Part shown: positions 3,355 through 4,479 of the stretch, in pieces
Layout: each line of letters begins with the position of its first letter
Position numbering within the stretch: position 1 is the stretch's first letter
Virus record (IMG/VR): IMGVR_UViG_3300006734_000001
Span: 1-52,162 of that record
Direction: 5' to 3' (one strand)
Source of the DNA: a virus
Lineage: Duplodnaviria; Caudoviricetes
Length of the DNA: 52,162 nucleotides
The notes under the pieces: model-generated
Told to the model about the DNA's origin: nothing
Seen by the model: the letters and a program-made list of their open reading frames with translations, nothing else
Databases searched by the model: none
Program-made: the position numbers and the translations under genes

Positions 3355-3542
3355 TCTACCAAGCCTATCTGGACATCACAGACAAGCATGAATACCAACG
3401 TAGAGACAGAATGTTCAAGCGTGATGAGCATGCGAGGACGGCGAGAGAGTTCTTCAACTCCAAGCATTACTTGCACATCTGCGACATACTAAACATCGAC
3501 CCCAACAGAATACTCAAGAAAATCAATGAAAAAGAAAGCTGA
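3252..3542 (+). CDS. Conserved phage hypothetical protein
   Basis: LLCGVIYQAYLD...AREFFNS...ICDILNIDP pattern common in phage proteins; start uncertain. Confidence 0.65.
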   Translation: MARGKSQPDVPFDPSFVGFYTDHETACRNLLCGVIYQAYLDITDKHEYQRRDRMFKRDEHARTAREFFNSKHYLHICDILNIDPNRILKKINEKES

Positions 3543-4479
3543 ATTATTTATGAGTCCCGCCGACGATGGCGAGATTGTGGAATACGACCAATACGTAAGA
3601 GAGGTGGAGCAATGGGCCAAGTCGGAATACCAAGGCATCCGCATCACCTCCGATCAGATCAAGAAGCTGATCAAGATGGTCATGCTGAACCAATACCCTC
3701 CAGATAACGTGCCAGATGAGGTTGTGATGATCTATGAAAGGATCGAGGGCGACTGGCAGGAGGCAAAGGAACTGATCGCCGATGCGGAGGAGCCACACTA
3801 TGAGCCTGTGCATGAGGAACCATCTCCTGTGAACACGGAGAAGAGCCTGTCGCTGGTCAACCACGCGAACAACGGGGTGGAATTGTCCTCGTTCAGCAAG
3901 AAGTTCGACCTTGGCCCCGGCATGACGCAATGCGTGCCGAGGGGAGAGGCAACCATGGAAGACTGGGTGACGGCATTCAGCTTCGGCCTAGCCTTGGAGT
4001 CCGGTAGCCAATGGATCATTGGAGACGCTGTAGTGGCACTAGAAGACGAGGGGCATGACGATGTGGTCAACCAACTCTGTGCCAACTTCAAGAAGAGCTA
4101 CAGCACGGTGTCCGGCTACGCTAGGACGAGCAGAGCATTCCCCGCAGCCCAGCGGGATGCCATGCTACCCTTCACGACCTACCGTGAGATCGGCAACGCC
4201 AGCCTCCCGCCAAAGAAGATGGAAGAACTGGTGGAGACAGCGAAGAGCGAGAAGCTATCCTGCGCCGAGGTCCGTAGCAGAGTGCGGGGTGAGCAAGGCA
4301 AGGAAGAACGCAGGCCCCACCGCTACCTCGTCCTCAATGTTGCCAACCGTATCAACTCGACAATCCTCACAGAACTACCCGCCGAGATCGAACCGCAGAA
4401 CGTGGTTATTGACCTCATGCGGGGGGCAGAGTATGATCCCGCCAACAAAGAGTGGATCAAATATATCAAAGGAGAATAA
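3526..4479 (+). CDS. LmbU/ParB-like HTH DNA-binding protein
   Basis: QWIIGDA...SYSTVSGYARTSRAFP...LPFTTYREI...LSCAEVR resembles the LmbU-family pattern W.IGD...Y.T......R.F....R...L.F.H..E.....S..ELR. Confidence 0.55.
   Translation: MKKKAELFMSPADDGEIVEYDQYVREVEQWAKSEYQGIRITSDQIKKLIKMVMLNQYPPDNVPDEVVMIYERIEGDWQEAKELIADAEEPHYEPVHEEPSPVNTEKSLSLVNHANNGVELSSFSKKFDLGPGMTQCVPRGEATMEDWVTAFSFGLALESGSQWIIGDAVVALEDEGHDDVVNQLCANFKKSYSTVSGYARTSRAFPAAQRDAMLPFTTYREIGNASLPPKKMEELVETAKSEKLSCAEVRSRVRGEQGKEERRPHRYLVLNVANRINSTILTELPAEIEPQNVVIDLMRGAEYDPANKEWIKYIKGE

Follow-up and report, generated by a model that had tools for sequence, protein, structure and literature searches.

The virus genome analyzed here (IMG/VR record IMGVR_UViG_3300006734_000001; Duplodnaviria, Caudoviricetes) was taken as a whole record of 52,162 bp, rated 100% complete and referred to below as the window, and carries 23 exact copies of a short palindrome, TATCG-N4-CGATA (TATCGNNNNCGATA). 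A protein of 317 amino acids (aa), the LmbU/ParB helix-turn-helix (HTH)-like protein P0001 encoded on the plus strand at 3526..4479, probably reads this array; we put the probability of this reading at about 0.6, on the basis of sequence comparison and a structural model. A preliminary description of this DNA had proposed that the protein and the dispersed sites form a two-part system. That proposal is supported as the leading hypothesis by the predicted fold of the protein, by its co-occurrence with the array, by a distantly related complete phage genome (G029), and by a contig (L062) that pairs a divergent branch of the protein family with an altered palindrome.

The open reading frame (ORF) at 3526-4479 has the top coding score among the neighboring frames, and its translation contains the stretches QWIIGDA, YSTVSGYARTSRAF and LPFTTYREI, which had earlier been quoted as recalling the LmbU family. 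This likeness is borne out by a match to the NCBIfam profile NF038070 (LmbU_fam_TF; E 2.9e-8, though under the curated cut-off), in which residues 144-266 align with profile positions 12-131 of 171. Judged from its sequence, the protein is related only distantly to the LmbU DNA-binding domain, and the curated test does not place it in the family. LmbU is the sole sequence family that detects it; there was no match in Pfam even at E ≤ 10, none in PHROGs, and none by sequence in the PDB. A feature search of the ESM Atlas ranked LmbU clusters first (score 0.94), and the structure rows of the same resource were ParB-HTH families, all with template modeling (TM) scores below 0.5.

Structure prediction, which the preliminary description had proposed as a check on the protein, points to a ParB/Noc/KorB-type HTH domain. 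In an AlphaFold2 model built from 18 homologs (predicted local distance difference test, pLDDT, 82.3), an N-terminal helical domain (residues 1-88; 3526..3789, plus strand) and a disordered acidic linker (residues 89-101) precede the predicted central helical DNA-binding domain (approximately residues 104-256; 3835..4293, plus strand), and a five-stranded beta domain forms the C-terminus (residues 265-317; 4318..4476, plus strand; strands at 267-312). Exhaustive structural alignment with the VIA aligner matched the central domain (over residues ~139-261) to Spo0J (1vz0_A; Z 8.5, root mean square deviation 4.1, 103 aligned residues, model residues 139-251), ParB-parS (6s6h_B; Z 8.0), the DNA-binding domain of KorB (1r71_A; Z 5.8, on residues 146-258) and SopB (Z 5.5). 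The leading rows of a Foldseek search were Noc (7nfu, 7ol9), Spo0J and ParB, with E values of 0.08-0.7 and probabilities of 0.84-1.0. By these comparisons the central domain would adopt the ParB/Noc/KorB-type HTH fold, which in this class of proteins recognizes palindromes of 13-16 bp, with Z values at the edge of reliability. The putative recognition helix, SYSTVSGYARTSRA, spans residues 191-204 (4096..4137, plus strand; helix 192-204 in the model), and 18 clade members all share Y192, T194, V195, S196, G197, Y198, A199 and R200; the stretch FKKSYSTVSGYAR is nearly invariant in the same 18 proteins.

The flanking domains are less readily classified. The N-terminal domain is predicted with a pLDDT of 84-92 over residues 11-80, falling below 50 in the linker, and gave no convincing structural match and no ParB match; it is missing from the G029 homolog and from other short family forms. 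The beta domain may be a dimerization module, as far as the model goes. Folded alone it reached a pLDDT of 78.8, and its best match in the PDB had a Z of 3.8, so that no fold, such as that of a KorB-like SH3 dimerizer, could be assigned. No ParB_N domain (the N-terminal ParB/Srx-like CTPase domain) was matched in Pfam at E ≤ 10, and the protein does not qualify as a ParB CTPase. PHROG and Pfam scans of the called ORFs revealed no ParA-type partner ATPase, and no nuclease domain is fused to the 317-aa protein.

The 23 exact sites of the window, roughly one per 2.3 kb, rise to 27 when up to one mismatch is allowed, against 1.14 expected. The consensus of 498 sites pooled from related loci is (A/G)T-TATCG-K-N-N-M-CGATA-A, with TATCGK as the half-site and a free center; between genes the site most often takes the form of the perfect 16-mer TTATCGTTAACGATAA. 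In a de novo count of palindromes with five-base arms around a gap, the motif was top or tied-top in 60 of 60 related loci, which hold 2-20 copies per 11-21 kb, and all 25 near-complete relatives carry 15-32 copies, compared with 0-1 copies of a reversed control word. Arms with a single compensated change occur at background (0-6 occurrences for each of 15 variants, compared with 321 canonical sites in 15 genomes), which indicates that the word itself is recognized and not merely a stem.

The distribution of the sites was analyzed in 14 genomes, comprising the window and 13 relatives fetched in full. These genomes contain 312 sites, 153 of them deep inside genes and 159 at gene junctions or in intergenic DNA, while coding DNA makes up 85-93% of the sequence. 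The sites are spaced more evenly than chance, with coefficients of variation of 0.42-0.68 compared with approximately 0.94 for random placement; in 12 of the 14 genomes at most 5% of 2,000 random placements were equally even (p ≤ 0.05). Sites at the same codon recur in up to 13 of the 14 genomes. At the site over codon 248 of a superfamily 2 (SF2) helicase gene (5880..5893 in the window), all 14 genomes encode LSATI, and the motif is present in nine of them (TTA TCG GCN ACG ATA) and gone in the other five, which use other synonymous codons for LSATI. Since these residues are kept while the motif comes and goes by synonymous codons, it is the DNA word, rather than the protein, on which selection acts.

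A typical junction site has the order stop codon, one base, motif, 0-8 bases, ATG. Elsewhere a TTGACA-like box follows the site after 6-19 nt, and the site often stands right behind a T-run; a TTGAC[ATC] box is found within 30 nt of 26 of the 159 junction and intergenic sites, compared with 296 of 5,600 control positions. A consensus promoter scan was uninformative (15 matches, 15.9 expected). The preliminary description had placed a palindrome some 20 bp upstream of the -35 box of a promoter for a nuclease/single-stranded DNA-binding protein (SSB) operon that includes the LmbU-like gene. The palindrome, TATCGTCACCGATA at 935-948, is there, with TTGACA 19 nt further on; no -10 box is apparent there, and the consensus scan called no promoter. 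The nuclease also holds, as the ORF at 1505-2251 is a PD-(D/E)XK exonuclease by Pfam and PHROGs, and the SSB assignment of the ORF at 2248-3081 found no support in either.

Further features of the site surroundings were observed. Genes behind junction sites have no Shine-Dalgarno-like sequence in the 0-8 nt between motif and ATG, and translation of such genes by coupling or from leaderless starts is possible. Between modules, a boundary cassette consisting of GGGGTGCG-T-run, palindrome and A/T-rich stretch recurs in G007, G010, G011, G016, G021, G022 and G024, and looks like a terminator, a site and a promoter. In ten of the 14 genomes a site lies in the low-complexity middle of the ORF at 2248-3081, and in the other four (G002, G004, G013 and G023) a site falls instead within the LmbU-like gene itself, in the codons for the linker (aa 92-93). 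All 14 genomes therefore have a site in one or the other of these genes; given the density of sites this is only suggestive of autoregulation.

In databases, the family to which the 317-aa protein belongs is large and unnamed. At E ≤ 1e-3 there were 689 homologs, none with a name; the 120 of these that were listed are 51-96% identical to it and approximately 305-333 residues long, several of them on contigs of 50-55 kb. A profile search of 1.84 billion representatives returned 228 proteins at E ≤ 1e-3, among them about 40 full-length distant forms (21-51% identity) with varied putative recognition helices, such as SYANVYNNAKT, SYQLISKWSRT and PYKSIWRMAAT. Shorter family forms that do not include the N-terminal domain also exist. 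Searches of 50,697 deposited phage genomes, by tblastn with P0001, P0146, P0149 and P0125 and also by blastn, detected no family member.

The gene and the array occur together, which had been proposed as a check across related phages: a homolog of the LmbU-like protein is encoded in 26 of the 26 near-complete array-bearing genomes examined, and arrays without the gene were seen only on fragments. In the 13 full relatives, tblastn detected the LmbU-like protein, the XRE-type protein (18412), the protein encoded at 6707 and the HNH endonuclease in all 13, the replication initiator in nine, and the winged HTH (wHTH) protein (17484) in four. Two motif-first searches of IMG/VR, for each of which 80 of about 145 stretches were listed, provided 42 contigs picked by eye as lying outside the gene-first list. 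Of these, 16 have only one or two sites and no homolog, and 25 are array-bearing fragments, at most 67% complete, that do not carry the LmbU-like gene. The 23 fragments tested also do not carry the neighboring SF2 helicase, and the 18 of them from the first scan have no ortholog of the ORF at 2248-3081; the five from the second scan carry an ortholog of the structural-module protein at 27495-28889 (80-81% identity). As the genes next to it are missing too, the LmbU-like locus is evidently not covered by these fragments, which neither support nor refute the pairing.

The remaining contig of the 42, G029, is a complete genome of 48,848 bp that was found via the motif alone. It has nine sites, all intragenic, and shares six of the 69 window proteins at E ≤ 1e-3 and 23-42% identity: the exonuclease, the LmbU-like protein, the HNH endonuclease, the terminase and the products of the ORFs at 23211 and 41137. 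Its LmbU-like homolog has 226 aa, is 27% identical to the window protein (E 2e-13) and keeps the helix start SYSTVS; no close relative of this homolog was found. Clade hidden Markov models (HMMs) detected no ortholog of the XRE-type protein or of the 6707 protein in G029 (best E 0.45 and 2.5, respectively), and its only HTH_3 protein gave no BLASTP alignment to the XRE-type protein of the window at E ≤ 100. As a separate observation, G029 carries a minus-strand block of sugar-modifying genes (L248:11667-16866) whose products include a methyltransferase, an NAD-dependent epimerase and members of glycosyltransferase families 2 and 9, with a further methyltransferase at L248:7662-8357; the block is absent from the clade of the window.

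Protein and motif also appear to change together. L062, a 2,706-bp contig and the only one returned by a metagenome scan, was found purely via protein patterns of the group of distant forms with the helix SYANVYNNAKT. It encodes the last 124 residues of a group member, 59% identical to P0146 (E 7e-33). TCTCGTTAACGAGA occurs on the contig in four exact copies (0.01 expected), two of which stand in the layout TAA-C-motif-2 or 3 bases-ATG, and TATCG-type sites are absent. No TCTCG-type site is present in the window or in 14 other genomes. By sequence, then, a family branch with a different helix appears to adjoin a palindrome of the same architecture in which one base is changed per half-site. 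This is the co-variation of recognition helix and motif that had been suggested as a check, seen in one record whose helix is taken from its group. No full-length form of the L062 protein was found. A scan for CTCTCGTTAACGAGA gave 19 single matches at chance level, with the exception of one 5.4-kb fragment that has three TCTCG-type sites and no homolog aboard, and IMG/VR scans with three divergent helix groups returned no match.

Several observations count against the 317-aa protein as reader of the array, or against a simple account of what it does there. Its LmbU score of 33.9 bits falls far short of the curated family cut-off of 125 bits. No Foldseek match reached E ≤ 0.001; helical Raf1 domains, which are unrelated, appear between the ParB rows of the VIA alignment at Z 6.0-7.7, and the aligner itself warns that a Z below 8 can reflect a common arrangement of elements, so that the values for the ParB family are borderline. 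The co-occurrence is partly by construction, as the gene-first relatives were collected via the LmbU-like gene. The XRE-type protein is present in 13 of 13 relatives as well, and its helix GVTGSLINQIE is well conserved; invariance within the clade therefore cannot separate it from the LmbU-like protein. The outgroup test comprises one genome, G029, in which the HNH endonuclease co-occurs too. The co-variation comes from a single 2.7-kb contig on which the HTH of the protein lies off the end, and its helix is drawn from five group representatives. With a box nearby at 26 of 159 sites, most sites are not promoter-proximal, and this, together with the wholly intragenic array of G029, fits a pure operator model poorly. 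The even spacing and the many intragenic sites likewise speak against simple operators and leave room for a chromosome-wide organizing or marking role.

Among other possible readers, it is unlikely that a different phage protein recognizes the palindromes and that the LmbU-like protein has another target, for example its own operon only. The most plausible such protein is the XRE-type one (18412-18717), which is conserved and whose gene has a -35-like box with a site 12 nt ahead of it, and G029 encodes an HTH_3 protein too; the HTH_3 protein gave no BLASTP alignment with the XRE-type protein and no clade-HMM ortholog was detected in G029, yet the motif there is identical. The 6707 protein, whose N-terminal HTH-like stretch varies within the clade, is absent from G029. 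The replication initiator occurs in only nine of 13 relatives, and the wHTH protein (17484-17765) was excluded as reader by its absence from nine of 13. A host protein (a regulator, nucleoid protein or defense system) that the phages mimic or exploit, with the LmbU-like protein unrelated to the array, would account for a word that is invariant across phages whose terminases are about 30% identical, through a shared host factor. We regard this as improbable: the changed motif of L062 accompanies a changed phage protein group, both motif-first IMG/VR scans gave arrays only in such phages (the 16 other contigs having one or two sites), and no phage or bacterial paper containing the exact motif string was found in the literature searched, where the string turned up in two unrelated papers.

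The layout of the junction sites would also suit an RNA element, a stop-start hairpin that couples translation or marks processing in messenger RNAs with no Shine-Dalgarno sequence at that place. Many sites fill the entire gap from stop codon to ATG, with 0-8 nt to the start, a hairpin of 5-7 bp can form, and A-rich centers such as GAAA lie on the sense strand 29 times to 1 in genes and 12 to 3 between them. This bias, however, recounts orthologous sites and tracks a coding strand that is generally rich in A. Hairpin stability is low (-3.2 to -4.8 kcal/mol), the arms never co-vary, with compensated variants at background as described above, and the K and M positions extend the palindrome into the would-be loop; approximately half of the sites lie deep within genes at conserved places, and no Rfam family matches. 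An RNA element has, by these arguments, a slim chance of being correct. Least probable of all is that the palindromes are targets of DNA transactions, as hot spots of recombination or replication or as nicking sites for the exonuclease, RusA or the HNH endonuclease, with or without the LmbU-like protein as targeting subunit. The LmbU-like gene lies within the exonuclease/helicase block, the exonuclease and HNH endonuclease are among the six proteins in common with G029, and even spacing over the genome would suit a process that has to reach all of the DNA; but no nuclease domain is fused to the LmbU-like protein, and cutting or nicking both strands of each palindrome would fragment the genome.

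If the 317-aa protein is the reader, a dimer would dock through its central HTH on the 16-bp site (T)TATCG-K-NN-M-CGATA(A), a picture drawn from the fold class, from the symmetry of the site, whose halves are independent, and from the way protein and word persist together and change together. Having no CTPase domain, the protein would not slide as a clamp but simply stay bound at its sites. At sites beside -35 boxes it might occlude the promoter or activate it by recruiting RNA polymerase, and in short gaps between co-directional genes it might form roadblocks to elongation in the manner of stoperators. By analogy with known systems, protein and array most likely serve to control transcription genome-wide, as KorB or stoperators do, though the regulatory mechanism is held with less confidence than the reading of the array itself. 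By analogy with the inhibitory N-terminal domain of LmbU, residues 1-88 plausibly modulate binding. A more tentative and doubtful idea is that a ParB/LmbU-like dimer with no CTPase and an even lattice of 15-30 palindromes together constitute a whole-chromosome addressing system, in which helix and half-site co-evolve (TATCG, TCTCG) and the lattice serves as a copy-number-sensing timer, or as a scaffold that organizes the DNA or marks it as self, and not as a set of ordinary operators. In the timer version, early protein would saturate the incoming genome, and replication would multiply the sites and titrate the protein, turning the late genes on.

The closest working analogue is KorB with its operator OB, likewise a short palindrome dispersed over a mobile genome of ~50-60 kb; the IncP-1 plasmid RK2 carries 12 OB sites. 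KorB is reported to be a ParB-family HTH protein that controls many operons from OB sites both near and far from promoters, and it has an N-terminal CTPase domain, forms a sliding clamp and works with KorA (PMC11790492). Unlike KorB, the phage protein has no ParB_N match and no partner was found for it, and the phage sites are twice as dense, with half of them in codons. The best structural matches of the phage protein are with the Noc/Noc-binding site (NBS) and ParB/Spo0J-parS systems (7nfu, 7ol9, 1vz0, 6s6h). ParB, Spo0J and Noc proteins form dimers that read palindromes of 14-16 bp, and the sites of Noc are spread over the chromosome. The phage protein differs from these in having no CTPase domain or membrane-targeting helix, in a genome with no ParA, and in its phage setting.

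With LmbU, from the actinomycete regulators of NF038070, the phage protein shares a homologous central HTH domain. The LmbU study describes binding to the palindrome CGCCGGCG through the HTH, homodimers, autoregulation, and an N-terminal domain that inhibits or modulates binding (PMC6510168). In the phage protein the N-terminal domain is unlike that of LmbU and a beta domain has been added, and its 16-bp motif is repeated genome-wide, whereas LmbU has a single promoter site in a biosynthetic cluster. In Cluster A mycobacteriophages (L5, Bxb1), dozens of stoperators are described over a genome of ~50 kb, many in short co-directional gaps, at which bound repressor stops transcription; these sites are asymmetric and are read by a two-domain monomer (PMC9283540). 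The site in the window is instead a perfect palindrome, half of the sites are intragenic, and the candidate reader is ParB/LmbU-like. A stoperator-type system would also go with a temperate phage, and no integrase or sign of lysogeny was found in the ORF scans or genome collections. The start-associated sequences of Cluster K mycobacteriophages are a conserved, non-palindromic 13-bp word a few bases upstream of many starts and are tied to translation starts only. Half of the window sites, by contrast, are intragenic, and their arms are conserved in sequence with no structural co-variation.

The family bears no Pfam or PHROG name, and its at least 689 members come from metagenomes, with no relative found by tblastn in the deposited phage genomes; if the reading is right, a large environmental phage group would have a genome-wide layer of control or organization of the KorB kind. 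The DNA code of such a layer would be simple enough to be testable in vitro with one protein and one oligonucleotide. The codon-embedded, positionally conserved sites show that synonymous codon use in essential phage genes is shaped by selection for a DNA word, and the TATCG/TCTCG pair is a naturally occurring switch of specificity with which DNA recognition by ParB-type helices can be studied.

Individually, the intergenic and junction sites of the window are placed as follows. The site at 935..948, 19 nt before TTGACA, is ahead of the gene block that runs from the exonuclease to the LmbU-like gene, and a site lies upstream of the ortholog of the ORF at 994-1368 in three of the 14 genomes. 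The site at 7922..7935 is intergenic and comes immediately behind a hairpin (7940-7964, minus strand) that resembles a strong terminator, and that at 11422..11435 abuts the start codon of the minus-strand ORF 11179-11421. At 13099..13112 the site is in the 3' end of ORF 13084-13665 and 11 nt before the start of ORF 12878-13087; at 16799..16812 it separates the replication-initiator gene from that for DnaB, whose start follows after 2 nt. The site at 18348..18361 occupies a divergent region, where it abuts the start of a minus-strand ORF ending 18347-18356 and precedes by 12 nt a TTGACC ahead of the XRE gene. The sites at 19489..19502 (intergenic) and 23187..23200 are 45 nt before ORF 19548-20705 and 10 nt before the start of ORF 23211-25631, the latter with a counterpart 4-15 nt upstream in nine of the 14 genomes. 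Two sites fill gaps: 29470..29483 that between ORFs 28960-29469 and 29491-29820, and 41123..41136 that from the stop of ORF 40915-41121 to the ATG at 41137, where sites lie -3 to 6 nt before the start in 12 of 14. The site at 34739..34752 is at the start of ORF 34744-36618.

The intragenic sites include that in the SF2 helicase gene (above) and the one at 2652..2665 inside ORF 2248-3081, at the place matched in ten of the 14 genomes. At 15947..15960 a site lies inside the DnaB-like helicase gene (aa 282), and relatives have it at aa 282 (three genomes) or aa 140 (11). The sites at 21030..21043, inside the terminase large-subunit gene (aa 579), and at 38773..38786, inside ORF 38582-40441 (aa 67), are at the same codon in 12 and 13 of the 14 genomes, respectively. 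Those at 26057..26070, inside ORF 25866-27176, and 32321..32334, inside the tail-fiber ORF 32235-32873, recur in seven (aa 59-72) and three. The others are inside ORF 29824-32013 (31863..31876), the amidase/endolysin ORF 33134-33841 (33726..33739), ORF 36819-38582 (37868..37881) and the giant ORF that runs from 45369 to the wrap-around (46738..46751 and 50852..50865).

This giant ORF, of 2,524 codons, runs from 45369-52162 into 1-904 and thereby spans the record ends and a 123-bp terminal repeat; the record is thus a circular assembly and the repeat an assembly overlap. Its product, with an ART-PolyVal ADP-ribosyltransferase domain (E 1.8e-12) and no PHROG match, is probably a polyvalent virion protein that is injected. 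Family scans identified the SF2 helicase (4965-6626, minus strand), a DnaB-like helicase, a replication initiator, RusA, an HNH endonuclease, tail fibers and an amidase, and gave the large terminase subunit a weak match only. No integrase, ParA, DNA methylase or polymerase was found in Pfam and PHROG scans of the called ORFs of the window, and Rfam and tRNA scans gave no match.

The only phage contigs found in genome collections were two free ones binned in metagenome-assembled genomes (MAGs), neither with host flanks. One of them, L252, is a 51.8-kb contig binned in a public MAG labeled Candidatus Woesearchaeota; it has nine sites in the 21 kb examined and is evidently a whole phage of the clade of the window. 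The other, a 9.7-kb piece, sits in the bin of a Chthoniobacter MAG. Among early genes, conservation within the clade is highest for those encoding two tiny minus-strand proteins, one of 80 aa (13632-13874; 65-93% identity in 13 of 13 relatives) and one of 48 aa (13876-14022; 75-89% in 12 of 13), the latter of which matches phrog_16028.

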